A model generated the notes under the pieces. That model searched no databases, was not told the origin of the DNA, and saw nothing but the letters and a program-made list of their open reading frames with translations. DNA of 64,000 nucleotides from an uncultured bacterium (GTDB lineage Bacteria; Chloroflexota; UBA5177; JANWHV01): assembly GCA_963729625.1 (NCBI GenBank), contig CAVSOU010000014.1:32001-96000 (forward strand), in the 5' to 3' direction. The position numbers and the translations under genes were made by a program. This document shows, in pieces, positions 42,144-63,155 of this stretch (the first letter of the stretch is position 1; each line of letters opens with the position of its first letter).

Positions 42144-42189
42144 GCTGTGCTAAAATCCCTAAGAGATTTTGCCGAACGCAAGGTGTAAA

Positions 42190-44247
42190 ATGCGCTTTCG
42201 TATCGATTCCAGACTGCTTGATCGCTTCCCGAATGCATGCATTGGACTCGTTGTCGCCTACGATCTCGACAACCGCGGGAACAGCCCGGTCATCACAAAT
42301 CTGCTGAGGAGCTCCGAATCGGATGTGCGGGAGCGATTCGCGACCGAGAACATGCTCGCGTTGCCCGCGTTTGTCACGTGGCATGAAGCATTTGCCAGGC
42401 TGGGCATGAGCGCAAAGCGATTCAAGATCTCGGTCGAAGCGCTGGCTGCACGTGTGCTGAAGGGCGCGCGACTGCCCGACCTGAATCCCGCCGTCGATCT
42501 GGCCAATGCATTATCCCTCAAGTACTTGCTCCCTCTTGGCGCTCACGACGTCGATCGCCTTCGTGGAGACATCGTCGTCGGCCCCGTACGCCCAGGGGCG
42601 GCGTTCACTCCGATGGGCGGCTCGAAGCCTGAAACGGTCGATCTGGAGGAGATCGTGTACGCGGACGACCAGGAGGTGCGCACGCGAAGGTGGGTGTGGC
42701 GGGAGGGCGAGCATTCACGGGTCACGGCCACGACGCGAACGGTGTTGTTTCCCATCGATGGGTGGATTGGACTCAACGATTCGGATGTGCGTTCGGCAAA
42801 GGTCGAGCTCGCTACCCTCCTCGAGGAGCAGCTCGGCGCGCATGTACGGACGTTCTTCCTGGATCGAAGCACTCCCGAAGCGGTGCTGGAACCCGACGAT
42901 TCGCGTCAGGATCAGCCCATTTCTACCCACGATGGGTTTCGCATGGCCGGAGTCGCGTATCGCGAGATTCCCTCCGAGCCGGTCACCGTCAAGGCGGAAG
43001 CTCTCGAGCCGGTGGTTGAGCAAGCGCGGCCAACGATCCGTCGCGCCGGGCCCTGGGGCAAGCAGGACGCGATCTCCAGCCTGCTGAATCGGGCCACCGA
43101 ACATGTCGTGATCCGTGAAGAGCTGGAGGGGCGGCTGCGAAGCGGCGACCGACTGCGCGTTAAGCTCGGGATCGATCCGACGAGTCCCCATGTGCATATC
43201 GGCCATGCCGTCGTATTGCGGAAGCTTCGTGCCTTTCAGGACCTTGGGCACACGATCTGCCTCGTCATCGGCGACTTCACAGCTCAAATTGGCGACACAT
43301 CCGACAAGTCGGCCATGCGACAGATGCTCTCCGAGGAAGACGTTTATCAGCACCTGACAACCTACAAGAAGCAGATATCTCAAATACTCGACGAGTCGAA
43401 AGTCGAGTGGAGCTACAACACCGACTGGCTAGGCTCGCTTCGCTTCAAGGACGTGGTCGGACTGGCGGCCAATTTCACCGTCGCTCAGATGCTTGAGCGC
43501 GAGAGCTTCGCCAAACGCTACGAAGCTGGACAGTCGATCGGTCTGCAGGAGTTCCTGTACCCGCTGATGCAGGGGTACGATTCGGTCGCTCTGAAAGCAG
43601 ACGTCGAAGCAGGCGGCACGGACCAGCTCTTCAACTTGATTGCCGGTCGCACGTTGCAGCGTGCATTCGGGCAGCCGCCGCAAGCAGTGCTCACCTGCCC
43701 ACTCCTGCTGGGCCTCGACGGCCGCAAGATGAGTAAGTCGTACGGTAACTTCATCGCACTTGACGAGCCGGCCAAAGATATGTACGGGAAAGCAATGTCC
43801 TTTCCGGACGAGCAGATTCTTCCATGCTTCGAGCTTTGCACAGACGTTCCGCTCGATGAGCTGGACACCATCGCGGACGCGCTGGAGGCAGGGCAGAATC
43901 CAATGATCGCGAAGAAGCGGTTGGCCTTCGAGATCACACGACTTTACCACTCCGAGGCGGCGACCCGATCGGCTCAAGAGGCATTTGAACGCGAGGTGCA
44001 GCGCAGGGAACGCCCTGCCGACATTCCAGTCGTCACGCTTGACCGTGGAGGTGAGTGGCTGCTGGCGGACCTCGTCGTGGCAACGGGCCTCTCCAAATCA
44101 AAGGGTGAGGCGCGGCGAAAGGCCGCTGAGGGCGCCGTGTACTACGACAATACACGTGTCATTGATCCACTGGCGTCCATAGAGGTCCGGGATGGCATGG
44201 TGATCAAGCTCGGCAGGCACTATCGCCAACTCCGACTACCCACATAA
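42190..44247 (+). CDS. tyrS: Tyrosyl-tRNA synthetase with N-terminal B3/4 domain fusion
   Basis: 42190-~42890: SVEAL..R.LKG..LP..NP.VD..N..SLKY.LP.G..D, EIVY.D, TRRW.WR (B3/4). From 43066: VKLGIDPT, HIGH (43195), YPLMQGYD, GGTDQ.FN, KMSKS (43726), C-terminal S4 domain. Extended -10 TGCTAAAAT at 42148-42156. Confidence 0.93.
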   Translation: MRFRIDSRLLDRFPNACIGLVVAYDLDNRGNSPVITNLLRSSESDVRERFATENMLALPAFVTWHEAFARLGMSAKRFKISVEALAARVLKGARLPDLNPAVDLANALSLKYLLPLGAHDVDRLRGDIVVGPVRPGAAFTPMGGSKPETVDLEEIVYADDQEVRTRRWVWREGEHSRVTATTRTVLFPIDGWIGLNDSDVRSAKVELATLLEEQLGAHVRTFFLDRSTPEAVLEPDDSRQDQPISTHDGFRMAGVAYREIPSEPVTVKAEALEPVVEQARPTIRRAGPWGKQDAISSLLNRATEHVVIREELEGRLRSGDRLRVKLGIDPTSPHVHIGHAVVLRKLRAFQDLGHTICLVIGDFTAQIGDTSDKSAMRQMLSEEDVYQHLTTYKKQISQILDESKVEWSYNTDWLGSLRFKDVVGLAANFTVAQMLERESFAKRYEAGQSIGLQEFLYPLMQGYDSVALKADVEAGGTDQLFNLIAGRTLQRAFGQPPQAVLTCPLLLGLDGRKMSKSYGNFIALDEPAKDMYGKAMSFPDEQILPCFELCTDVPLDELDTIADALEAGQNPMIAKKRLAFEITRLYHSEAATRSAQEAFEREVQRRERPADIPVVTLDRGGEWLLADLVVATGLSKSKGEARRKAAEGAVYYDNTRVIDPLASIEVRDGMVIKLGRHYRQLRLPT

Positions 44248-52069: not shown

Positions 52070-52879
52070 TCATCGCATCGGCTTGATGCGGACATCCGGC
52101 CGCTCGGACCGCGCCAATCCAAGGTGTTCGGCAAGATCGCCCTTGTTCAAAGCGATGCAAAGGCGATCAAACGAGTCGACGAAGAGCAACGCGGCACCTA
52201 CCGGAGCGTCGTCAAACGTGCGCGTGATCTGAACCTCGATCACCTTGTTGCCGACGTCGACGGATGCTTGCATGGCGGCGCCAAGCACCGCAAGAAGATC
52301 GGCGGGAGCGGCCAGAGCCAGGCTGCCAAATTCATTGACTGCTACCACCTTCGTGCGTATCTCATCACCGGCGATCGTGCTGACAGGCTCAAGTAGTCTC
52401 ACCAGCGTCGAGTGGTCGATGGTAGGTCCCAACAGGTGCATTGTCACGCCGTGCGAGACATGGGCAGCCGCAGGGCAAAAGATATCGCGCGCGTGGAATG
52501 TATTCGACACAGGCTGGTGGCGGAAGTCCGGGACCGTCAGCTCGACCGCCGATTCTATGCCACCGAGCGCCTCAGCGGCCGCGATCAGCAGGCCGTTGTC
52601 GGGTCCAATCAGGATGTCGCCGCGCCGCGCCGCAATGGCGATCGGCCTGCGCATTGTGCCAACGCCGGGATCGACAACTGCCACGTGCACGCATTGCGGA
52701 AAATGGCGAACCACCGATCGAAGCATCCAGGAGCCGGACTCGACGTCAAAATGCGGGATGCTGTGCGAGATGTCGACGACTATCGCTCGCGGGCTAATCG
52801 AGGCGATAACGCCCTTGCACTGGCCCACCGACGAATCGCTCAAGCCGAAGTCCGTGAGAAACGAGATAATGGCGTCCAC
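52070..52879 (-). CDS. DUF62 SAM hydroxide adenosyltransferase (chlorinase/fluorinase superfamily)
   Basis: LTDFG, DISH, VVDPGVG..R, GPDNG, S.TFHARD.F, FG.L; the Asp/Arg/His triad of the hydrolase branch is present. Confidence 0.88.
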   Translation of the reverse strand: MDAIISFLTDFGLSDSSVGQCKGVIASISPRAIVVDISHSIPHFDVESGSWMLRSVVRHFPQCVHVAVVDPGVGTMRRPIAIAARRGDILIGPDNGLLIAAAEALGGIESAVELTVPDFRHQPVSNTFHARDIFCPAAAHVSHGVTMHLLGPTIDHSTLVRLLEPVSTIAGDEIRTKVVAVNEFGSLALAAPADLLAVLGAAMQASVDVGNKVIEVQITRTFDDAPVGAALLFVDSFDRLCIALNKGDLAEHLGLARSERPDVRIKPMR

Positions 52880-52909
52880 GACCTTCACCGCCCTGAATAA
52901 CGCGCTGAA

Positions 52910-53160
52910 CAACATGACAGCCGGACAATCGCTGGGGCGAAGCCGGCTGCGTCGCGGTACCACCCAGATTCACGGCGAGCCAAACAGGTTCGCCGCCTCT
53001 GCCCCGGGTAACGGTCGGTGCCGCGGCAGCCTTGCGCGCGACGCGCTGAACTGCCGGCTCAGGAGTGAATAACGCGGTTCGTCGCCGGTTCAAGCGCTTG
53101 CAGCCGCGGCGCTTAATCTCTGGAAATGGCGTGAACTTCCGCGCGCGTCTCCGTCACTGC
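52910..53160 (-). promoter_or_regulatory. T-box riboswitch, Phe (UUC) specifier
   Basis: Minus strand: GCAGTGACGGAG kink-turn start, AGAGA bulge, GGCTGCAA distal loop, specifier TTC (53069-53067) before A-CTCC-TGA, CCGTTA box, T-box AATCTGGGTGGTACCGCG (52970-52953) pairing with CGCCCC. Extended -10 TGATACATT at 53177-53169. Confidence 0.9.
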
Positions 53161-53234: not shown

Positions 53235-53307
53235 GGGCCCTTAGCTCAGCGGTTAGAGCTCCCGACTCATAATCGGTTGGTCCCCGGTTCGAATCCGGGA
53301 GGGCCCA
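53235..53307 (+). tRNA. tRNA with CAT anticodon, most likely tRNA-Ile2 (lysidine); CCA not encoded
   Basis: GGGCCCT/AGGGCCC acceptor stem, CCGA-CTCATAA-TCGG, GGTTCGAATCC. Resembles E. coli ileX and lacks initiator features. Confidence 0.9.
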
Positions 53308-53319
53308 CTCTTCTCTTGA
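53266..53319 (+). repeat. attL: 54-bp direct repeat, copy 1 (tRNA anticodon loop to 12 nt past the tRNA end)
   Basis: CTCATAATCGGTTGGTCCCCGGTTCGAATCCGGGAGGGCCCACTCTTCTCTTGA, identical to 63102-63155. Confidence 0.97.
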
Positions 53320-53371
53320 ATGAGAGAAACCAACAAAGCCAACGGGCCGATTGGCTGCAAGCACATCGTTC

Positions 53372-53571
53372 CTCATCGCCGAGAATCCGATGGCCAAGAT
53401 GCGTCGCCCATGGTCGGACAGAAGCTTGTCCCCGTCGCATCCGACGACGACCTGGATAAGCTGCTGAACACCGTGCGCGGACACGACTTTCTCTCGATTC
53501 GGGATCGGGCCATCATCGCGCTTCTTGCCGACACAGGCATGCGACTTACCGCGTGCACGGACATCGAGGTA
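53372..53571 (+). pseudogene. Tyrosine recombinase/integrase remnant
   Basis: LIAENPMAKMRRP (frameshift near 53405) MVGQKLVPVASDDDLDKLL...DFLSIRDRAIIALLADTGMR (box I); no box II or catalytic Tyr follows. Confidence 0.8.
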
Positions 53572-53845
53572 GCGAGTCCCCGCGGTTCCCAGAACGGGCT
53601 GCCCATCTCCCGCCTGGTTCCCATGCAGGAGGCTGGGACTCTCCCATCGCCCGTCGATCCGCTAGCCCTGACCCTGGCACGCCCGACGGCGCTGCGACGC
53701 CTGTTCCAGTCGCTGCGGCACGCCCGCGGTGTACGCAGCCGGTGCCGGTCGGAAGAGATTCAGCCGGCATTGATCGACGCGGTCGCTCCTGCGGGGCGCA
53801 ACTTTGCAGCATATGTCCCCTTTCTAGCCGAGGCCAGAGAGTGCA

Positions 53846-56800
53846 TCATCCAGTCTTCGTCCACTGGCCGGGCAGCAGTGCCCCACGGTCCAGACATGGA
53901 TCGAAGCCGGCTCGGCTGATGATCAGCAGATTCTTCTGGCGCAACCAGCGATAGACGCCTGGAGGGGGATCCTGGTGTGGATTGTCCGAGCAGAAGCCGT
54001 TCTGATTTGCCGGCAAGTAGCCGGTCATGGTAAGGCGGCCGGCCGGCGTGGCCGTGAAGTACTCTTCGACCATGAAGTCGGGGCTCGCCACGTCGACCGC
54101 AGCGCCGGTGTGCACGCTCACGGGAGAGAAGCCGACCCAGCCAGGTCCGATCGTGATTGTGGGCTCGGTGCCTACCCAGTCGGAGGTATTCGGGTCGTGG
54201 GCGGCAATCCCGTCCGCGTTCTGAAAGGTGCGGCGATACGTGCCTACGAGCGAAGCAGGCACAGTCGTCACGATCGCGGGCCGGGACACCGGCTGCTCGC
54301 CGAACAGGAGCGCGGCCACGTGCAGGCCAACGTCCTCGGCACTATTTTGCAGCTCGTTGCCAAATATGACGATCGTCACTCCCGCGTCGGGAAAGCGCAT
54401 GTTGAGGGTGGAAAAGCTATTCCATGCGCTGTCGGTGTAGATCACGCGGCGGCCGAGCGCGGTGCCTATCTGCCACAGGTAGCCTATCCCGCGCGGGGCA
54501 ATCCCAGGGTCCGTCTGGCCGATGCTCGCACGTGGGGCAAAGAGCGTGGCCAAATACGGGCGCGAGAGCAACTTTCCGGCGAACAGCGCGTTGTCATAGG
54601 CGTAGACGTCATGCACAGTGGTATATGCCTGAAAGGAGTCGTTATACACGGTGTTGTGATCCAGATCGGCGCCGTGGTAGGCGCGCGCAACGACGCTCGA
54701 TGCCATGGCATCGGTGAGCCGCCAGGTGTTCTTCATACCGAGGGCGCTCAGGTTGCTGTTGAGGACGAAGTTCTCCCAGGACCCGTGGGAGGTCTGCTCG
54801 ATAATCGTGCCGAGGACAAGCGCGCCGCACGTTGAGTAGTTGATAGTCGAACCGATCCGCCCAAAGAGACCGCGCAACGGCATGTCCTGACACCGTCCGA
54901 TCGACCACTGGGTGGTCTGGCCGGCACTGCCCCAGCTGTAATCGGGCAGACCGGCGGTGCCGTCGAGCACCATGCGCACGGTGATCTGCCTCCAGCTTGG
55001 TGGGCAGCTCGAGAGGTACGTGCAGATCGGCGTTTGCCAGGCCAGCCTGCCGCGTTGGATCAGTTGCAGGGCGCCCAGGACGGAGAGGCTGTCACTGACG
55101 CCGACGGCCGGATAGGTAGTGGCGGGCGTGTTGGGGGAACGGTGCAGGCGATCGGCCAGGCCATAGCCCTTCTCCAGCACGACCGCGCCCTGTCGCGCCA
55201 CCAGCACGGTGCCACTGAGCTGTTGATGTGCCGCGAGGTCACCCAGATAAGCGTCGACGGTGGCGGCAAGGCTCGGCGGCCGTGTCGCCATCGACGCGCG
55301 CGCCCACACGCCTATTGCCACGACGACCAGCATCGCTAGCAGCCCGGCCGCGGCCGCCAATCGGTGGCGCCGTACCAAGGGCCGTGCTACCACCCGTGCC
55401 TCCGCGTGCAGCGCGGCTACGGCGGCTTCCAGCTCCTTGGCCGACTGGAAGCGCCGTCCCGGATCCTTTGCCAGGGTCTTCTGGATCAGGGCGTCCCAGC
55501 CAGCCGGGATGGCGGGATTGAGGCTGCTGGGCCGAGGCGGGTCGTCCTGCACGTGCTTAATCGCCACGGTCAGTGCGTCCTCCCCCTCGAAGGGCGGCCG
55601 GCCGGTCACCATGTGGAAGAGCAGGGCGCCGAAGGCGTAGATATCGGTGCGGCCGTCGATCCTCTTCCCCGCGATCTGCTCCGGGGCCATGTAGAGGGGA
55701 GTGCCTATACGCATGCCGGTGGTAGCAATCGTCTGCGGCGAGGCGTCGGGCTGGAGGAGGCGCGCGATGCCGAAGTCGGTTACTTTGACCTGGTCGTCGC
55801 CCACCACCATGACGTTGTCCGGCTTGATGTCGCGGTGCACGATCCCCTGCGCATGGGCGTACGTAAGTGCCGCAGCCACCTGCAGAGCCAGCCGCTTGGC
55901 GCGAGGCAAAGGCAGCGGCACAGTGCGGAGAATCTGGCCAAGCGTAGGGCCGTCGAGTAATTCCATGATGATACAGCAAGCATGTTGCTCGGCGAACGTA
56001 TCGTGGATCCGCACGATGTTGGGGTGGGACAACGTGGAGAGCATTGCGCCTTCCTGCTGGAAGCGCAGCAGGACGTCGAGGTCGATCTCTGTTCGGGCCA
56101 GCACCACCTTGGCGGCTACCATGGCGCCGGTCGCGCGGTCGCGGGCGCGGAAGACCCGCCCCATGGCCCCGGCGCCGATCTCCCCCTGCAGCTCCAGCCG
56201 TCCACCAAGTGACCTGGTCAGTTGGTCGATAAGCCGAGGATTGCCCTTGGTACGCCGGTAGACAAAGCCCGCGAACTCCTCCGAGACCTCATGCTGGCCC
56301 ATTTCGGCCGCCACCATGCTCGTGGTCTCCTCCAGCGACAGGCGACGCAGGCCCAAGCGCTCCATCACGCCTTCGCGTGCCAGGGCCTGCACCAGCTGGG
56401 AAAGCTCGGGGTGCTCCTCGCCGAGCCGCGCATCACGGAAGCTTCCGGCCAGCAGGATACGCGAACCGCGGATTGCCCGGGCCAAGTGCCCGAGCAGCCG
56501 GAGGCTCTGGCCGTCGGCCCAGTGCAGGTCGTCCAGTAGCAGCGCCAGCGGGACAGACTGGGCGACGAGCTTCAGCAGATCGGCCACAGCGCCGGCGATC
56601 TGCTGCTGTTCCACTGTGCTTGACGCCAGCGCAGTGCTACCGGCCTGCGCCTCGCGGATCAACACTTGGATCCTCGCCCAGCGCCGTTTTACCTCCGCTT
56701 GCGAGCCGGCCGGCACGGCTGCGACTAGGTCGGTGAGCGCTTCCACAAAGAGATAGTGGGGAGTGGTCTGCTCGGCGGGGTAGCAACGACCCGTCGCCAC

Positions 56801-57265
56801 TACGCAGCCGCGACTTCGAGCTTCGACCATCAGCTCCTGTACAAGCCGCGTCTTCCCTATTCCCTGCTCGCCATGGAGCAGGACCAACTGTCCTTCGCCC
56901 TCCATCGCTGCCTCCAGCAAAGCCCAGAGACGCCCCCGCTCTTCCTCCCGCGCCACCATCGGCCGGGCCGGCAGAGCGCCAAGAAAGCTGCCTTCGGGCG
57001 GGCCGTCATCGGTCGGTGCTATGGCAGTCGCGGCCAGTGCCGCGTGCTCGAACATCGCGCGATCCACCGCCGACAGTCCGAGGGCATCGGCCAGCCGGCG
57101 TACCGTGTAGGCTCGGGGACGGGTCTTGACGCTGCGTTCAAGGTCGCTGATAGCGCGCACGCTCAACCCGGCGTGGTCAGCCAACTCTTCCTGGGTCAAG
57201 CCTACGGCGACCCGGAAACGGCTGAGGAGGCTGGCGAAACCGGGCGGCTGTGCAGGGTCCATCAC
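53846..57265 (-). CDS. Multidomain membrane signalling protein: XRE-HTH + STAND/AAA ATPase + Ser/Thr kinase + TM + extracellular beta-lactamase-like domain + C-terminal domain
   Basis: LTQEELA..AGLSVRAISDLER; GEQGIGKT, LLLDDLHWAD, T.GNP; GAGAMG, VAAK, HRDIKPDN, DFG, YMAPEQ; hydrophobic helix ~55365-55300; LSGTVLVA..G......GYGLAD, ITVR..L..TAGLPDY, LGMKNT. Confidence 0.85.
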   Translation of the reverse strand: MMDPAQPPGFASLLSRFRVAVGLTQEELADHAGLSVRAISDLERSVKTRPRAYTVRRLADALGLSAVDRAMFEHAALAATAIAPTDDGPPEGSFLGALPARPMVAREEERGRLWALLEAAMEGEGQLVLLHGEQGIGKTRLVQELMVEARSRGCVVATGRCYPAEQTTPHYLFVEALTDLVAAVPAGSQAEVKRRWARIQVLIREAQAGSTALASSTVEQQQIAGAVADLLKLVAQSVPLALLLDDLHWADGQSLRLLGHLARAIRGSRILLAGSFRDARLGEEHPELSQLVQALAREGVMERLGLRRLSLEETTSMVAAEMGQHEVSEEFAGFVYRRTKGNPRLIDQLTRSLGGRLELQGEIGAGAMGRVFRARDRATGAMVAAKVVLARTEIDLDVLLRFQQEGAMLSTLSHPNIVRIHDTFAEQHACCIIMELLDGPTLGQILRTVPLPLPRAKRLALQVAAALTYAHAQGIVHRDIKPDNVMVVGDDQVKVTDFGIARLLQPDASPQTIATTGMRIGTPLYMAPEQIAGKRIDGRTDIYAFGALLFHMVTGRPPFEGEDALTVAIKHVQDDPPRPSSLNPAIPAGWDALIQKTLAKDPGRRFQSAKELEAAVAALHAEARVVARPLVRRHRLAAAAGLLAMLVVVAIGVWARASMATRPPSLAATVDAYLGDLAAHQQLSGTVLVARQGAVVLEKGYGLADRLHRSPNTPATTYPAVGVSDSLSVLGALQLIQRGRLAWQTPICTYLSSCPPSWRQITVRMVLDGTAGLPDYSWGSAGQTTQWSIGRCQDMPLRGLFGRIGSTINYSTCGALVLGTIIEQTSHGSWENFVLNSNLSALGMKNTWRLTDAMASSVVARAYHGADLDHNTVYNDSFQAYTTVHDVYAYDNALFAGKLLSRPYLATLFAPRASIGQTDPGIAPRGIGYLWQIGTALGRRVIYTDSAWNSFSTLNMRFPDAGVTIVIFGNELQNSAEDVGLHVAALLFGEQPVSRPAIVTTVPASLVGTYRRTFQNADGIAAHDPNTSDWVGTEPTITIGPGWVGFSPVSVHTGAAVDVASPDFMVEEYFTATPAGRLTMTGYLPANQNGFCSDNPHQDPPPGVYRWLRQKNLLIISRAGFDPCLDRGALLPGQWTKTG

Positions 57266-57470
57266 GTGACTTTCTGCAAAAGGCTGAGCAGGGCGCTCTT
57301 GGCGATCGCACTACCCAATCTGCCGGGCAGTACAAGTGACACGTCTATGTTACTTATGACACAATAGCGCTGTCGCCGCGAGGTGCTCGTGCCTCACTGG
57401 ACGGTTGCGACACCGAGGCGCGCTTGTGCGCGAACGACAGGTCGGATCGTTGCACGCCGGGAGATCAACA

Positions 57471-58511
57471 ATGAGTGTCAACCGAACACGACGAGCACTG
57501 CGGCTGGCGATCAGCACATTCCTGCTGCTTGGTGTTGTGTGGCTGCCGGGACGGACCCAGGCGATCGGTACTGCACGGCCGGCTGCTGCTAGACCAGACT
57601 GGACCGCGCAGACCTCCGGCACCAGCGTCTACTTGGACGACGTCGACTGCCCGAACACGACCACCTGCTTCGCCATAGGTCACGACGGCACGCTCCTCGC
57701 GACCACCAACGGGGGCGAAACGTGGACCCGACAGACGTCCGGTACCGCGGAAGTGCTATACGGCATTAGCTGCCCGAGCGCTACCAGGTGTGTTGCCGTG
57801 GCACTCGACGGCACGATTCGCGCGACTGCCGACGGCGGGAAGTCGTGGATCCTGCAGAACTCCGGCACGGAGAACTCTCTGGCGAAAGTGAGCTGCCCGA
57901 GCACTACGACCTGCCTCGCCGTGGGTCCACAAGGCACCATTCTTGGCACCAACAACGGCGGCAAGAGCTGGAGCAGGCAGGTATCCATTACCTCAAACGA
58001 CTTCACCGGCCTCAGCTGCCCGAGCACGCGGATTTGCTTCATAGTAGGTGTGAACGGCACCATCCTGACTAGCACCAACGAGGGCAGCAAGACGCCGACC
58101 TGGAGCCTGCAAACCTCCGGCACCCTGGACTTTCTGATCGGCCTCAGTTGCCCAAGCACCACTACGTGCCTCGCCACGGGAGACAACGATGCCATCCGGG
58201 TCACCACTAACGGCGGTAGGGCGTGGAAGCTACTCACGTCCAACACCAGTTCGTGCAGAACACATGGCCCTGGGTGCGCGACAATGAGTATCAGCTGTCC
58301 AAGCGTCACCACCTGTTTTGCCATGACAGACCTGGGCACCTTTGTGGCCACCAGGAACGGGGGCAAGACGTGGGTCCCGCAAACTGCCCCGAAGCTACCT
58401 CAGAATCCTGCCCATCCTACGTGGGCGCGGATGGCTTATCTGGACTGTCCGAGCACCAGCACCTGCTTCGCCGTGGGCGACAGGGGCGTCATCCTGCGCC
58501 TTCGGAGATAG
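57471..58511 (+). CDS. Secreted BNR/Asp-box (YCF48-like) beta-propeller with seven Cys-paired repeats
   Basis: Signal peptide; 7 x [S/D]CP[S/N]xxxC, most followed by G..GT...T.[N/D]GG.[T/S]W..Q. ATG 57471 follows GGGAG. Confidence 0.85.
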   Translation: MSVNRTRRALRLAISTFLLLGVVWLPGRTQAIGTARPAAARPDWTAQTSGTSVYLDDVDCPNTTTCFAIGHDGTLLATTNGGETWTRQTSGTAEVLYGISCPSATRCVAVALDGTIRATADGGKSWILQNSGTENSLAKVSCPSTTTCLAVGPQGTILGTNNGGKSWSRQVSITSNDFTGLSCPSTRICFIVGVNGTILTSTNEGSKTPTWSLQTSGTLDFLIGLSCPSTTTCLATGDNDAIRVTTNGGRAWKLLTSNTSSCRTHGPGCATMSISCPSVTTCFAMTDLGTFVATRNGGKTWVPQTAPKLPQNPAHPTWARMAYLDCPSTSTCFAVGDRGVILRLRR

Positions 58512-58816: not shown

Positions 58817-58848
58817 TTGTGTGGGTCTTGTGTGGGTTCGCACGTGGG
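58817..58848 (+). promoter_or_regulatory. Helically phased direct repeats, candidate transcription-factor site
   Basis: TTGTGTGGGT at 58817 and 58828 (11-bp period), third GTGGG at 58844. Confidence 0.45.
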
Positions 58849-58953: not shown

Positions 58954-59229
58954 GTGCCTACCTACATGGTTGAACGTGTCCTGCCAGGCGCCACAGTGGA
59001 ATCGCTCGAGGCCATGTGCCAACAGCTTCAACGCACGTGCAACGGCACTGCCGAGGGCAGCGAAGTGCGCTACCTGCGCAGCACGTTCACGCCGGGCGAC
59101 TCACGCTGCCGCTGCCTGTTCGAGGCGCCCAACGATGACCTGGTGCAGGCGATGAACGAGGTGGCTCAGATCCCGTATATCCGGACCCTTCTCGCCGTGG
59201 AGCTTATCCCCAACGACGTGAAAGAGTAG
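58954..59229 (+). CDS. DUF4242 (SCO4226-like, putative nickel-binding) small protein
   Basis: RBS AAGGAGG; PTYMVER.LPG, VRYLRS...P.D..C.CLFEAP....V...N..A..P. Confidence 0.8.
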   Translation: MPTYMVERVLPGATVESLEAMCQQLQRTCNGTAEGSEVRYLRSTFTPGDSRCRCLFEAPNDDLVQAMNEVAQIPYIRTLLAVELIPNDVKE

Positions 59230-59497: not shown

Positions 59498-60592
59498 ATG
59501 AAACGATTCCTCGTTCTCCTCCTCGCCAGCCTGGTCATGGGCATAGGGGCCCCAGCGCTCCAGACGCACGCAGCGAATCACAGCACGTTGGCGGCGGCCA
59601 TGGGAACGCCGCCTACCACGCTGGGCGCGCAGATCGAAACGTATCTCACGGGGCTCGCGGCCAAGAACCAGCTGAGCGGCGTTGTGCTGGTGGCATGGCA
59701 CGGCACGGTGCTCCTGAGCCACGGCTATGGCATGGCCGACCGGGAGCACTCGGTGGCCAACTCACCAAGCACGAAGTATCCGCTCGCCGGCATCAGCTTT
59801 GCCATGTCACTGGTCGCCGCCCTCAAACTGGAGGAGCAGCGCACGCTCCACGACGGGGCGCTGGTCTGCGCCTATTTGCCCTCCTGCCCGGCCGCCTGGA
59901 AGCACCTCACTATCGGTATGGTGATTGACAACACAGCCGGACTTCCCAACTGGGATTGGGAGCATCAGGGGAACACGGTCGCAGATTCGCTGGCCGGCTG
60001 CCAGTCCGAGGCACTGAGCATCACGGTGGACTACCAGAACTGCACAGTTATCGTGCTGGGCACCATCTTCGAGAAAGTGACGGGCAAGCCGTGGGCTACC
60101 GTGATGCGCGCCGCACTCTTCGGGCCGGCCGGCATGGCGCACAGCGGCAGGATAACGGACGCGTTAGTGCCGCCCGCAAGAGCCAGTGCCTACTCGGGCG
60201 ACCAACCGAACCCCGGCACGCACTTCAACACCTACTATCACGTCTACGCCACGCTGCAGGATGTCTACGCGTACGACAACGCCATCTTCGGGGGAAAGAT
60301 CATCTCACAGCATGCCCTGCAGCGGCTCCTGGCACCGAAAACCGAAGTCTCACCGCCCGACGCGGGCATCACCGCTGAGCAGCAGGCTGCGCAATGGAAG
60401 CTCGGGACGCTCGGCGGACATCGAGTAGTCCTTACCACTGGCAGCTCCGCCGCGTTCACTGCGGCCAACGTGCGCTTCCCTAATGACGACGTGACGGTCA
60501 TTGTCCTCAGTAATGAAGATCAGAACGACGTGGAGGCTGTGGCTGTGCAGCTGGCCGAGCTGGTCCTTGGTATACGTCCGACGCCGGCGTAG
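59498..60592 (+). CDS. Secreted serine-hydrolase/beta-lactamase-fold protein lacking the SxxK motif
   Basis: Signal peptide; LSGVVLVA..G...LS.GYGMAD, YPLAGISFAMS at the SxxK position, TAGLP, YQN, FGPAGM, TVIVLSN. Confidence 0.85.
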   Translation: MKRFLVLLLASLVMGIGAPALQTHAANHSTLAAAMGTPPTTLGAQIETYLTGLAAKNQLSGVVLVAWHGTVLLSHGYGMADREHSVANSPSTKYPLAGISFAMSLVAALKLEEQRTLHDGALVCAYLPSCPAAWKHLTIGMVIDNTAGLPNWDWEHQGNTVADSLAGCQSEALSITVDYQNCTVIVLGTIFEKVTGKPWATVMRAALFGPAGMAHSGRITDALVPPARASAYSGDQPNPGTHFNTYYHVYATLQDVYAYDNAIFGGKIISQHALQRLLAPKTEVSPPDAGITAEQQAAQWKLGTLGGHRVVLTTGSSAAFTAANVRFPNDDVTVIVLSNEDQNDVEAVAVQLAELVLGIRPTPA

Positions 60593-60828: not shown

Positions 60829-62694
60829 ATGAGACGACTGATCATAGCGATCTGTCTGGTGCTTGTGGGATGGTGCGGCACGGGTCTGGAGGGAGGTCAA
60901 GCTCTGGCCGCCTCGCTCTGCGTTGGAGGTGGACCTGGCTGCTACTCGACAATTGCTGCAGCCATCACTGCAGCGCACGACGGCGATGTGATTCGCATTG
61001 GCCCAGGCACATTCGCCGGGGGCATCAGCATCGACGTCAGTGTGCAGATCATTGGGGCGGGAGCGGGCGCGACGATCATCTCGGGCGGGGGCCCGGTAGT
61101 GACGATCGGGATTCCGAACGCGGCCGCGGAACCAACCGTGAGTATCGCTGGCGTGACGGTGACCGGCGGCGTGAACCATACCTTCCCCAGCCCCTCGGAC
61201 GCAGAAGGAGGCGGCATCTATGTCTCCCCCTCTGTCGGAGGAGGCGCCCTCACCACGGTGACGATATTCAACTGCGCCATTAGCGGAAACAGCGCCCAGT
61301 CGCTCGTCGGTGACGGAGATTCACCGTCCAACTCCACCAGCAGAGGCGGCGGCATCGCTAACTCCGGGACCTTGGCGCTCGTCAACACTACGGTGAGCGC
61401 CAACACTGCGGCTTGGCATATCAGCCCGGCGCCGGAGCCGGACTTTGACAAAGCCGAGGGCGGCGGCATCGCGAACAATGGCACGGGCACGTTGACCCTG
61501 CGCAACAGCACCGTCAGCGGCAACAGCGCGACTCTCACCACGACTGAGACCTCACGTGGCGACGGGGTAGGTGGCGGAGGCATTCTCAACCAAAATACAA
61601 CGCTGACCGTAGAGAATAGCACCATCGTCAATAACACTGCGAGCTCCGTCACCGCGGCGACCACAAACTTCGACTACGCCATCGGCGGAGGCGTTTTCTC
61701 TGGTGGCACACTGACCGTCAAGAACAGCACGGTCGGCGGCAACTCGGTCAGCTTCTCCACGGCGGCAGTGCAACCCAACCTGTTCGTGCACGGGGGTGGG
61801 ATCGAAGACGGCGGCACGGCGAACATCGACGGGACCGCCGTCAGCGGCAACTCCGTGACGGCGACGACCACCTCGCTAGACGCTAATAGCGGCGTCGGCG
61901 TGGTGGGCGGCGGCATCCACGTCGATGGGACGGCGACCATCCGGGGCAGCCAGATTACCGACAACAGCGTGACGACGACTGCGTACGGCGGCTTTGCCGC
62001 GGCCAACGGCGGCGGCATCGACGACGACGGCTCCCTCGTCCTGCTGGCCAGCAGCGTCCGCGACAATCACACCAGCACCACCCTGACGTCCACGCAGACC
62101 GGTGCGAGTGCCTTTGCCACCGGCGGCGGCATGGATGTGGACGGATCGGCCTCTGTTCTGGGCACGACCTTTAGCGGCAATAGCGCCACGTCGACGACTC
62201 CCGCGGCGACAGCCCCGTTCCCAGGCGGCACCTACGCCTTGGGGGGAGGACTCAATGTCGCGGGCGGGGACGTTCCGGTAGCGACGGTGGCTATGACGGA
62301 TAGCATCGTCGTCGGCAACCGCACCTCTGCCAATTCCACCTCAGGCACGGCGGATGGACCGGGCGGTGGCATCGCAAACAGCGGCATGCTGACCATGCGC
62401 AACACTGCCGTGGGCAACAACACCTCCAGCGCAAACGGCCCTAGCGGTTTCGCGGGAGGCGGGGGCATATGGAACGATCTTCCCCCAGGCCCGCCGTCCC
62501 ATCTGGCTCTCACCGACAGCGCGATCAGCCGCAACAGTGCGATTGGGAGTAGTCAGGGTATCACGGTGCAGGGCGGAGGCCTGTTCAGCGGCTCTAGCGA
62601 CGGCTCGACGGTGATGGCGACCAGGATCGTCATCGCCTTGAACACGCCGGGCAACTGCTACCCACTGCACGTCGTTTCAGGCTGCTTTGGCTAG
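60829..62694 (+). CDS. Secreted parallel beta-helix (GGGI/Pmp-like repeat) protein
   Basis: Signal peptide; Y.TI.AAI.AA..GD.I.I.PG; about 11 GGG[I/V/L/M]...L...NS.V.GN repeats; Cys pairs at both termini. Confidence 0.8.
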   Translation: MRRLIIAICLVLVGWCGTGLEGGQALAASLCVGGGPGCYSTIAAAITAAHDGDVIRIGPGTFAGGISIDVSVQIIGAGAGATIISGGGPVVTIGIPNAAAEPTVSIAGVTVTGGVNHTFPSPSDAEGGGIYVSPSVGGGALTTVTIFNCAISGNSAQSLVGDGDSPSNSTSRGGGIANSGTLALVNTTVSANTAAWHISPAPEPDFDKAEGGGIANNGTGTLTLRNSTVSGNSATLTTTETSRGDGVGGGGILNQNTTLTVENSTIVNNTASSVTAATTNFDYAIGGGVFSGGTLTVKNSTVGGNSVSFSTAAVQPNLFVHGGGIEDGGTANIDGTAVSGNSVTATTTSLDANSGVGVVGGGIHVDGTATIRGSQITDNSVTTTAYGGFAAANGGGIDDDGSLVLLASSVRDNHTSTTLTSTQTGASAFATGGGMDVDGSASVLGTTFSGNSATSTTPAATAPFPGGTYALGGGLNVAGGDVPVATVAMTDSIVVGNRTSANSTSGTADGPGGGIANSGMLTMRNTAVGNNTSSANGPSGFAGGGGIWNDLPPGPPSHLALTDSAISRNSAIGSSQGITVQGGGLFSGSSDGSTVMATRIVIALNTPGNCYPLHVVSGCFG

Positions 62695-63101: not shown

Positions 63102-63155
63102 CTCATAATCGGTTGGTCCCCGGTTCGAATCCGGGAGGGCCCACTCTTCTCTTGA
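63102..63155 (+). repeat. attR: 54-bp direct repeat, copy 2 (displaced tRNA 3' half)
   Basis: Identical to 53266-53319; no tRNA 5' half upstream. Confidence 0.97.

Follow-up and report, generated by a model that had tools for sequence, protein, structure and literature searches.

A predicted transmembrane receptor from the Chloroflexota that joins an XRE-type head, a shortened STAND ATPase, a Hanks kinase and a dead-enzyme ectodomain in one chain

The gene considered here lies in a stretch of 64,000 nucleotides from an uncultured bacterium of the Chloroflexota (assembly GCA_963729625.1, contig CAVSOU010000014.1, positions 32,001 to 96,000 of the forward strand); this entire stretch is referred to as the window. 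The gene codes for a receptor-like protein consisting of an XRE-type helix-turn-helix (HTH) head, an ATPase of the STAND class (signal transduction ATPases with numerous domains), a Hanks-type Ser/Thr kinase, a single transmembrane (TM) helix and an ectodomain with a beta-lactamase-like fold. It is located on an island at a tRNA-Met gene, which holds an integrase remnant and five genes. Positions of all features are compiled in Table 1.

An original prediction, made from the letters and their open reading frames, had described a single frame of 1139 aa with these parts in this order. The frame is the sole long one at this place. In Pfam scans four domains exceed their curated cut-offs, HTH_3 (16-66), AAA_16 (104-266), Pkinase (359-609) and Beta-lactamase PF00144 (673-979), and one hydrophobic stretch completes the order. 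The 5' end reads GTG (57265), directly followed by ATG (57262). Because the orthologues start with M-x-x-x-x-P-P, the Met being equivalent to ATG 57262, the start is probably this ATG rather than the GTG; the protein then has 1138 aa.

All four Pfam domains occur together in 25 of the best 120 homologues, which stem from JGI, ENA, Logan and NCBI assemblies and are 38-68% identical over the full length. A whole-genome search yielded uninterrupted full-length frames in two other genomes of the same class, G013 (53% identity, residues 4-1139) and G010 (45 and 41%). Twenty full-length orthologues, 41-66% identical to the query, were aligned; the conservation counts given below refer to this set. 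An assembly chimera or a decaying gene would be the trivial explanation. The source genome is a 21-contig assembly (87% completeness, 5% contamination) and the exact receptor stretch was found in no sequencing run; the four runs that turned up each had 5% of its words, with reads mostly from the HRD-motif region of unrelated kinases. However, the frame is uninterrupted, the same order is present in independent assemblies, full-length frames exist in G013 and G010, and the junction between ATPase and kinase is invariant. For these reasons we give the trivial explanation practically no credence and regard the receptor, on comparative grounds, as a genuine gene. A scan of genome contigs with the single receptor protein gave no relative. 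When the ortholog alignment was used, the pattern fell on generic kinase motifs and only ordinary kinases of other phyla matched.

Table 1. Positions in the window of the receptor gene, its parts and the features of the island
Feature	Position	Strand	Basis
Receptor gene	53846..57265	(-)	1139 codons, sole long frame there; full-length orthologues known
XRE-type HTH, residues 16-66	57068..57220	(-)	Pfam HTH_3 4.8e-11, HTH_31 7.3e-10
Truncated STAND/AAA+ module, residues 104-357 (nucleotide-binding domain and three-helix lid, without winged helix)	56195..56956	(-)	AAA_16 2.3e-24, model
Walker A GEQGIGKT, residues 132-139	56849-56872	(-)	motif read from sequence
Walker B LLLDD, residues 242-246	56528-56542	(-)	motif read from sequence
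GNP, residues 341-343	56237-56245	(-)	motif read from sequence
Hanks-type Ser/Thr kinase, residues 359-609	55439..56191	(-)	Pkinase 4.6e-53; catalytic motifs complete
Single TM helix (predicted), residues 636-654	55304..55360	(-)	hydropathy KD19 2.50, next best 1.74
Beta-lactamase/penicillin-binding-protein-like fold, predicted catalytically dead, residues 673-979	54329..55249	(-)	PF00144 2.7e-31; four invariant Cys
SxxK-equivalent site reading G-V-S-D	55091-55102	(-)	alignment to solved PF00144 proteins
C-terminal beta-barrel, likely lipocalin-like, residues 985-1139 (155 aa)	53849..54313	(-)	model pLDDT 84.8; C1092 and C1124 invariant
tRNA-Met, integration site	53235..53308	(+)	ARAGORN
Left 54-bp perfect direct repeat (tRNA 3' part and 11 nt)	53266..53319	(+)	repeat comparison
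Integrase remnant, directly after tRNA	53320..53916	(+)	PF00589 E 0.0048, below cut-off; residues 42-84 vs positions 5-46 of 172
Secreted BNR/Ycf48-like propeller protein, divergent from receptor	57405..58511	(+)	PSII_BNR 4.9e-14; likely start ATG 57472
Tandem 11-bp direct repeat TTGTGTGGGtcTTGTGTGGG, candidate operator upstream of SCO4226-like gene	58817..58836	(+)	repeat search
SCO4226-like small protein	58966..59229	(+)	PF14026 1.9e-12
Secreted stand-alone paralogue of the dead beta-lactamase-like domain	59498..60592	(+)	40% identity to residues 654-1008; without SxxK
Secreted 621-aa Gly/Thr/Asn-rich repeat protein, last island gene	60829..62694	(+)	no Pfam match
Right 54-bp direct repeat, island end	63102..63155	(+)	repeat comparison

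The head scores well above the Pfam cut-offs (HTH_3 43.0 bits, cut-off 23; HTH_31 39.5 bits, cut-off 27) and aligns to solved HTH proteins, the phage 434 repressor among them. Since the HTH residues Q25, E26, S35, L42, E43 and R44 are invariant in 20/20 orthologues, the head is, judged by its conservation, not vestigial. In the ATPase, the Walker A motif is situated exactly where the original prediction had it (56872-56849), and Walker B, GNP and the kinase motifs, all said to be intact, were located and are invariant or nearly so. G132, G135, G137, T139 and D245 never vary, at least 90% of the orthologues have K138 and D246, and in the GxP motif of the lid G341 and P343 are fixed as well. A model of residues 85-360 (pLDDT 93.9) displays a P-loop core of five strands that carries a long helical insert, followed by three helices, the last of which comes after GNP and leads directly into the Gly loop of the kinase. 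Foldseek matched this model to AAA+/STAND proteins (MuB, Orc1/Cdc6, MalT 8bob, ZAR1, Avs3) with TM-scores of about 0.5-0.58, which suffice for the AAA+/STAND class and not for a finer assignment.

A winged-helix domain after the lid is absent by Pfam and by model: the Pkinase match begins at 359, 15 residues past P343, without a linker between the ATPase module and the kinase. A repeat sensor of the tetratricopeptide (TPR), WD40 or leucine-rich (LRR) type is equally absent from the receptor in the Pfam scan. The original prediction, according to which the winged-helix and sensor region is missing where the kinase begins, thus agrees with both Pfam and model; its STAND assignment was right for the nucleotide-binding domain (NBD) and the lid, not for a complete STAND switch. 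As judged by sequence and model, the ATPase is a STAND module cut to NBD and lid, and the kinase stands where winged helix and sensor arm would be. Within its own genome, the closest paralogues of the receptor have XRE-HTH-AAA_16 architecture and a length of about 800-1050 aa. As their similarity to the receptor stops at about residue 353, and because the homologues P0116 and P0121 continue into TPR entries after HTH and AAA_16, the receptor looks like an XRE-STAND-TPR regulator which was cut after the lid and then joined to a receptor kinase.

The kinase is intact in all motifs, i.e., Gly loop, K386, E405, HRDIKPDN (477-484), DFG (497-499) and APE (527-529), and is predicted to be active. K386, E405, H477, D479, K481, N484, D497-F498-G499, P528 and E529 are invariant, R478 is present in 19/20 orthologues, and in the activation loop T515 and T516 are both invariant. 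The NCBIfam model PknB_PASTA_kin matches residues 351-630 (1.9e-90) with 304 bits against an equivalog cut-off of 450, the PknD model (2.1e-32) with 112 bits against a cut-off of 839. The junction itself is near-invariant. Following the stretch RRTKGxP at 337-343, the residues S352, G354, G355, R356, L359, E362, G364, G366 and G369 are invariant in 20/20 orthologues. In a separate alignment of 11 junction stretches, five of them from the more diverged loci L004-L008, L54-G55-G56-R57, L60 and G65 (numbering of the stretch) are again invariant. As the junction is invariant at 41-66% overall identity and in diverged loci as well, the comparison argues that the ATPase-kinase fusion is under selection.

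The stretch RPLVRRHR, which is positively charged, is positioned just on the N-terminal side of the TM helix, and the ectodomain has six invariant Cys as opposed to one in the cytoplasmic part. Orientation was assigned according to the positive-inside rule. From hydropathy, charge and Cys pattern we infer that the N-terminal 635 residues are cytoplasmic and the C-terminal 485 residues outside.

The first part of the ectodomain matches PF00144 with 109.4 bits (cut-off 27) at profile positions 4-318 of 329 and has 22 solved relatives. Alignment to 8agr, 2qmi and 3tg9 places G722 at the nucleophile Ser, D725 at the Lys and T812 at the Asn of YxN. The original prediction had noted an SxxK site without Lys; the Lys is indeed lost, and as the Ser is lost too, more than the Lys is gone. 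None of the 20 orthologues has a Ser in the nucleophile column, none has a Lys in the Lys column, and the residues found there are variable. The YxN site reads Y810-S-T812, with Tyr in 17/20 and Asn in 3/20 orthologues. The third motif, H-x-G in distant relatives, reads T944-D-S; T944 is invariant, His or Lys is present in 0/20. In the aligned active-site segments of the 20 orthologues no substitute invariant Ser or Lys exists. SxxK is missing from all 11 close ectodomain relatives which have that region, yet is retained in 35/35 distant relatives (23-33% identity), and these 35 also have YxN and HxG. By its motifs, the ectodomain is a dead enzyme in which all three hydrolase motifs were lost within the receptor subclade, and not an ordinary active hydrolase.

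One may argue that the ectodomain remains an enzyme which uses other residues, and that the signal arises from its turnover of a wall or peptide substrate rather than from binding alone. The well-kept fold, the Tyr at YxN in most orthologues and the invariant T944 would be compatible with such activity. However, the nucleophile and general-base positions are variable and non-catalytic in all 20 orthologues, the Asn of YxN and the third-motif His/Lys are mostly or entirely absent, and the aligned active-site segments offer no other invariant Ser or Lys. We therefore hold continued catalysis to be extremely unlikely. The outer part is predicted to be a ligand-binding sensor.

A BlaR1-like acylation mechanism is excluded by the alignment because the nucleophile Ser is absent. 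No peptidase family was found in the receptor in Pfam and NCBIfam scans, and Pfam scans showed no protease domain in the receptor or the island proteins. These results bear on the possibility that signal-dependent proteolysis near the membrane, by regulated intramembrane proteolysis or by the logic of BlaR1, frees a soluble HTH-ATPase-kinase fragment. The juxtamembrane segment is short (kinase end at about 612, TM helix at 636), and the single-pass topology is typical of substrates processed in this way. But neither the protein nor the island supplies a protease domain, the sensor cannot be acylated, and the tethered regulators ToxR and CadC work without release. Altogether, release by proteolysis appears very improbable.

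For the C-terminal Cys-containing domain the original prediction had given a size of about 130 aa; its presence is confirmed, its size is 155 aa (985-1139). VIA-align of the model returned lipocalin-like folds with Z values of 8.6-5.3, middling by the tool's own scale, including the C-terminal domains of 7spn, 1ei5 and 8fek. Foldseek with the same model found nothing at E<=0.001, its matches being limited to E>0.01, and PF11954 was unmatched in this domain in the Pfam scan. A lipocalin-like barrel is likely, the fold being taken from VIA-align alone; this fits with the more distant ectodomain homologues, which combine PF00144 with PF11954.

Is this architecture a singular event? A junction query comprising residues 231-470 was searched against 1.84 billion representatives and found 70 proteins at E<=1e-30. 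Among the best 150 matches, 46 run in one stretch over the ATPase-kinase junction, whereas proteins in the kinase-first order, which is the usual one, match as two stretches. The order ATPase-then-kinase is, by this measure, rare, as its unfamiliarity to the original prediction had suggested; it is not a lone case, since 123 junction-crossing proteins were gathered. In eight examples the domain order of family members was confirmed by Pfam. Of these proteins 110 have a near-complete core of nucleotide-binding oligomerization domain (NOD) plus kinase and were used for a tree (FastTree only; 13 partial proteins omitted; labels from BLAST seeds). The commonest forms among the 110 rows are an HTH head with an NHL ectodomain (20), an HTH head with beta-lactamase-like domain and barrel (18), a BTAD head with NHL (17), an HTH head with an insert and NHL (13) and an HTH head with the beta-lactamase-like domain by itself as ectodomain label (12); a few rows are Bmp and propeller forms. 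The head insert has about 230 aa and carries the JGI name class 3 adenylate cyclase. BTAD/SARP heads amount to 18 of the 110 rows, i.e., the 17 with NHL and one without ectodomain label, and in P0093, P0137 and P0141 Pfam shows the order SARP/BTAD-AAA_16-kinase-NHL.

On the core tree the ectodomain type must have changed 9 times, where 3 would be the lowest number possible, and the head type 8 times. Because of this, heads and sensors were, according to the tree, swapped repeatedly around a constant NOD-kinase core. Taken together, these comparisons place the receptor in a small, uncharacterised modular family; it is not a one-off.

Within the phylum, the junction module is present in 9/21 genomes of the window's class, its own genome counted, and was found in 0/4 congeners and in 0/380 other sampled genomes of the phylum; the unpublished G018 is among the genomes with no match. 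Genome G010 (loci L010, L011 and L012) alone holds 14 copies. Tandem arrangement is seen for several of these, and others are split or have internal stops, e.g., four TGA and one TAA in C4:463220-464854, which points to a lineage-specific expansion with decay. In three long proteins of 3000-3250 aa (P0145, P0146, P0151) the lid region is matched in 4-5 stretches, corresponding to several AAA_16-like modules per chain.

The original prediction's hint of an island is substantiated by the tRNA-Met, the 54-bp direct repeats and the empty site in the congener G001, in which the sequence found to the right of the window's second repeat follows about 30 nt after the tRNA. GC content is 64.3% on the island, compared with 61.0% over the 10 kb on its left side and 63.5% over the 10 kb on its right side. 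By these marks the receptor gene is part of a 9.8-kb tRNA-integrated island that entered this genome. Among the neighbours, the BNR/Ycf48-like protein has an N-terminus which reads like a signal peptide. The stand-alone paralogue of the ectodomain has the Cys pattern of the receptor ectodomain and no barrel. It might serve as a decoy or as a co-receptor, or it might have donated the ectodomain. The 621-aa protein is built from units GGGIxN..G.L..N.T.SGN, has no PADLOC match and looks like a putative parallel beta-helix.

A STAND ATPase with a kinase effector on a mobile island brings to mind an anti-phage or abortive-infection system, and PADLOC and NCBIfam do report matches to PD-T4-6, mad6, PglW and MADS6. 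Yet all 25 PADLOC matches listed (of 36 families) are confined to the kinase (residues about 350-650), and the other five island proteins match 0 PADLOC families. Furthermore, an extracellular sensor behind a TM helix is ill-suited for sensing cytoplasmic phage proteins, and the sensor arm of defence-type STAND proteins is absent. A role in defence is thus very unlikely.

Outside the island two genes of the window deserve mention. A SAM hydroxide adenosyltransferase (52070-52963 (-), SAM_HAT_N and SAM_HAT_C) directly precedes the tRNA-Met; its frame has an N-terminal extension of about 30 aa which may be a start over-call. A tyrosyl-tRNA synthetase of 692 aa (42169-44247 (+)) has an N-terminal B3_4 domain (71-199) ahead of tRNA-synt_1b (327-608). 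B3/4 is normally a feature of the beta subunit of phenylalanyl-tRNA synthetase, and the PheS/PheT genes are 4 kb away.

A possible target of the receptor comes from comparison of family loci. The SCO4226-like gene is divergent from and adjacent to the family gene in 4/17 other loci, L009 (in G013), L092, L093 and L094, independent of ectodomain type; in the window the BNR gene separates it from the receptor. Upstream of the SCO4226-like gene the tandem repeat has the layout TTGTGTGGG-N2-TTGTGTGGG. Diverged copies are found at the same place in the intergenic regions of L094, L009, L093 and L092; the four have 3, 4, 4 and 5 mismatches, and the 11-bp period and the orientation are kept. For comparison, 1.30 Mb of unrelated loci contain 8 matches at <=4 mismatches. 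The exact box occurs once only on the island. The whole genome has three matches at <=3 mismatches. One is the island site; another, with 3 mismatches, is located 106 bp upstream of an XRE-HTH-NOD paralogue and faces a divergent gene for a secreted protein. This paralogue, of 798 aa, and the secreted protein, of 301 aa, are at C8:182632-186160 in G000, and with the tandem TGTGTGGG copy in between they have the layout of the SCO4226-like loci. At <=5 mismatches, 6/211 genome matches are located in the 400 bp upstream of one of the 27 starts of HTH paralogues, a space which makes up 0.2% of the genome and in which about 0.4 are expected. The tandem repeat is a candidate, i.e., a lead for an operator and not proof of one.

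These data allow an assessment of another view, namely that the protein is mainly a receptor kinase of the PknB/PknD kind, the output of which is phosphorylation of other proteins, with HTH and ATPase as a regulatory or scaffolding appendage and not a transcription factor. The MalT-like region of PknK is thought to tune its kinase. The kinase is the best-conserved and top-scoring part of the receptor, the ectodomain types are those of known receptor kinases, e.g., NHL in PknD, and no operator was found in the receptor's own promoter. But the HTH residues are invariant in 20/20 orthologues, and the exchange of the head for a DNA-binding BTAD/SARP domain in 18 of the 110 tree rows is sensible only if the head is the output. 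A conserved DNA element and a target-like neighbour are also present. We consider a pure receptor kinase unlikely, albeit a view to be taken seriously.

The probable reading, in our opinion, is that of a transmembrane one-component regulator with XRE head, cut-down NOD, Hanks kinase, TM helix and dead-enzyme sensor in one chain. A ligand bound outside would alter the pairing of the kinase domains. The kinase would autophosphorylate on the invariant activation-loop threonines and phosphorylate the adjoining ATPase module, either in cis or, inside an oligomer, in trans. Such coupling is proposed because AfsK/AfsR provides a precedent for a kinase which acts on a NOD: AfsK phosphorylates the NOD of AfsR, including the last Walker A residue, which leads to increased ATPase activity and more oligomers (PMC10936776). 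In the receptor, phosphorylation would determine the oligomeric state which the ATPase module adopts in dependence on ATP, and in this way the arrangement of the HTH heads. These may bind tandem direct repeats close to the membrane, to which binding of MalT to direct repeats is a parallel, and may thus govern a small regulon. The best candidate target would be the SCO4226-like gene with its tandem element; perhaps the island's secreted proteins are targets too. That the ectodomain binds a muropeptide, a beta-lactam or a peptide and that kinase and ATPase activity gate DNA binding, as the original prediction had it, may reasonably be inferred.

Several observations weigh against this reading. 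The SCO4226-like neighbour is present in no more than the four loci mentioned, all from one subclade; the neighbours are otherwise unconserved, those of four orthologous or paralogous loci agreeing neither with the window nor with one another. The repeat motif was taken from the site in the window itself, the loci share a common descent, and in the 6/211 count the intergenic composition is uncontrolled. On the island the repeat is absent upstream of the receptor, the stand-alone paralogue and the repeat-protein gene, and the receptor promoter region (57240-57500) holds only short chance-like repeats. The usual target of XRE heads is an inverted repeat and not a direct one. Lacking the canonical winged helix, the ATPase module may be unable to switch or to form oligomers in the manner of MalT or AfsR. 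Finally, RNA libraries contain three longer contigs, 94-97% identical, over 55829-56206, 55688-56047 and 57102-57275; none of them crosses the junction (56194) by 31 nt, and none demonstrates transcription.

Going further, one may tentatively view the NBD-lid-kinase cassette as a distinct transmembrane signalling core, an idea we advance with more doubt than conviction. A ligand-controlled Hanks kinase would replace the winged helix and sensor arm of STAND proteins, and nucleotide state and oligomerisation would be set from outside via kinase pairing and cis-phosphorylation. The membrane oligomer would read tandem direct repeats. Heads (XRE, SARP, XRE with the cyclase-annotated insert) and sensors (dead PBP-like, NHL, Bmp) would be interchangeable, and the unit would be mobile by way of islands.

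Bacterial Hanks kinases usually reach transcription via separate substrates which are hard to identify. With sensor, kinase, ATPase switch and DNA-binding head in one chain, a single protein could serve to study the path from an outside signal to a promoter. In the relatives with a SARP head, a regulator like AfsR is naturally fused with a kinase, which favours the idea that STAND regulators are under kinase control as a general principle. As the winged helix is lost at an invariant junction, one may ask how a STAND ATPase works without it. The dead ectodomain and its secreted stand-alone paralogue on one island offer a clean case of an enzyme fold turned receptor, and the candidate operator with the SCO4226-like neighbour is open to direct and cheap testing.

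How does the receptor compare with known systems? All its parts are of known kinds. Database pipelines name such four-domain proteins automatically, by domains only, and in the open-access literature searched with the terms used we found no description of HTH-AAA_16-kinase-ectodomain proteins; the same applies to the combination, the order, a winged helix predicted to have been lost at a fixed junction, and a family of modular make-up.

The XRE-HTH-AAA_16-TPR regulators and MalT share homologous HTH, NBD and lid, one paralogue (1052-aa frame) being 41% identical over residues 8-353. The homology ends at the lid, and the receptor has kinase, TM helix and ectodomain in place of winged helix and TPR. 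The kinase-first AAA_16 proteins have the PknK-type architecture. They share Pkinase and AAA_16 and match the junction query with the AAA_16 part at about residues 430-550, yet their order is reversed, they are soluble, the region after AAA_16 is kept, and they have no N-terminal HTH and no ectodomain.

PknB, PknD and PknH consist of a cytoplasmic kinase, a single TM helix and an extracellular sensor. The receptor is predicted to follow this plan without PASTA domains and carries a DNA-binding head and an ATPase N-terminal to the kinase. BlaR1 and MecR1 are acylated at the SxxK serine and signal through a zinc protease. A penicillin-binding-type fold as extracellular sensor would be common to both, but the receptor has neither the Ser nor the Lys nor a protease domain. 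The hydrolases which combine PF00144 with a lipocalin-like domain (D-aminopeptidase 1ei5, esterase IS11 7spn, Ulm16 8fek, DUF3471 proteins) have a two-domain plan which the ectodomain probably shares; the receptor subclade differs by the loss of SxxK, YxN and HxG and the gain of conserved Cys.

In ToxR and CadC an N-terminal OmpR-type winged-helix head is followed by one TM helix and an outside sensor, with nothing between head and membrane. By its predicted topology the receptor would have the same logic of head, TM helix and sensor, whereas its head is of XRE type and about 570 residues of ATPase and kinase precede the membrane. AfsK/AfsR of Streptomyces couples a Hanks kinase with a STAND regulator that binds DNA, and the receptor family even has SARP/BTAD-headed members with NHL. 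The receptor differs in being one polypeptide, regulator first and kinase second, with a NOD that has no winged helix, arm or TPR sensor, with an XRE-HTH instead of a SARP head and with a predicted membrane anchor and extracellular sensor. In effect the receptor is probably a merger of both, i.e., of a kinase and STAND-regulator pair of the AfsK/AfsR type and a ToxR-like tethered regulator.

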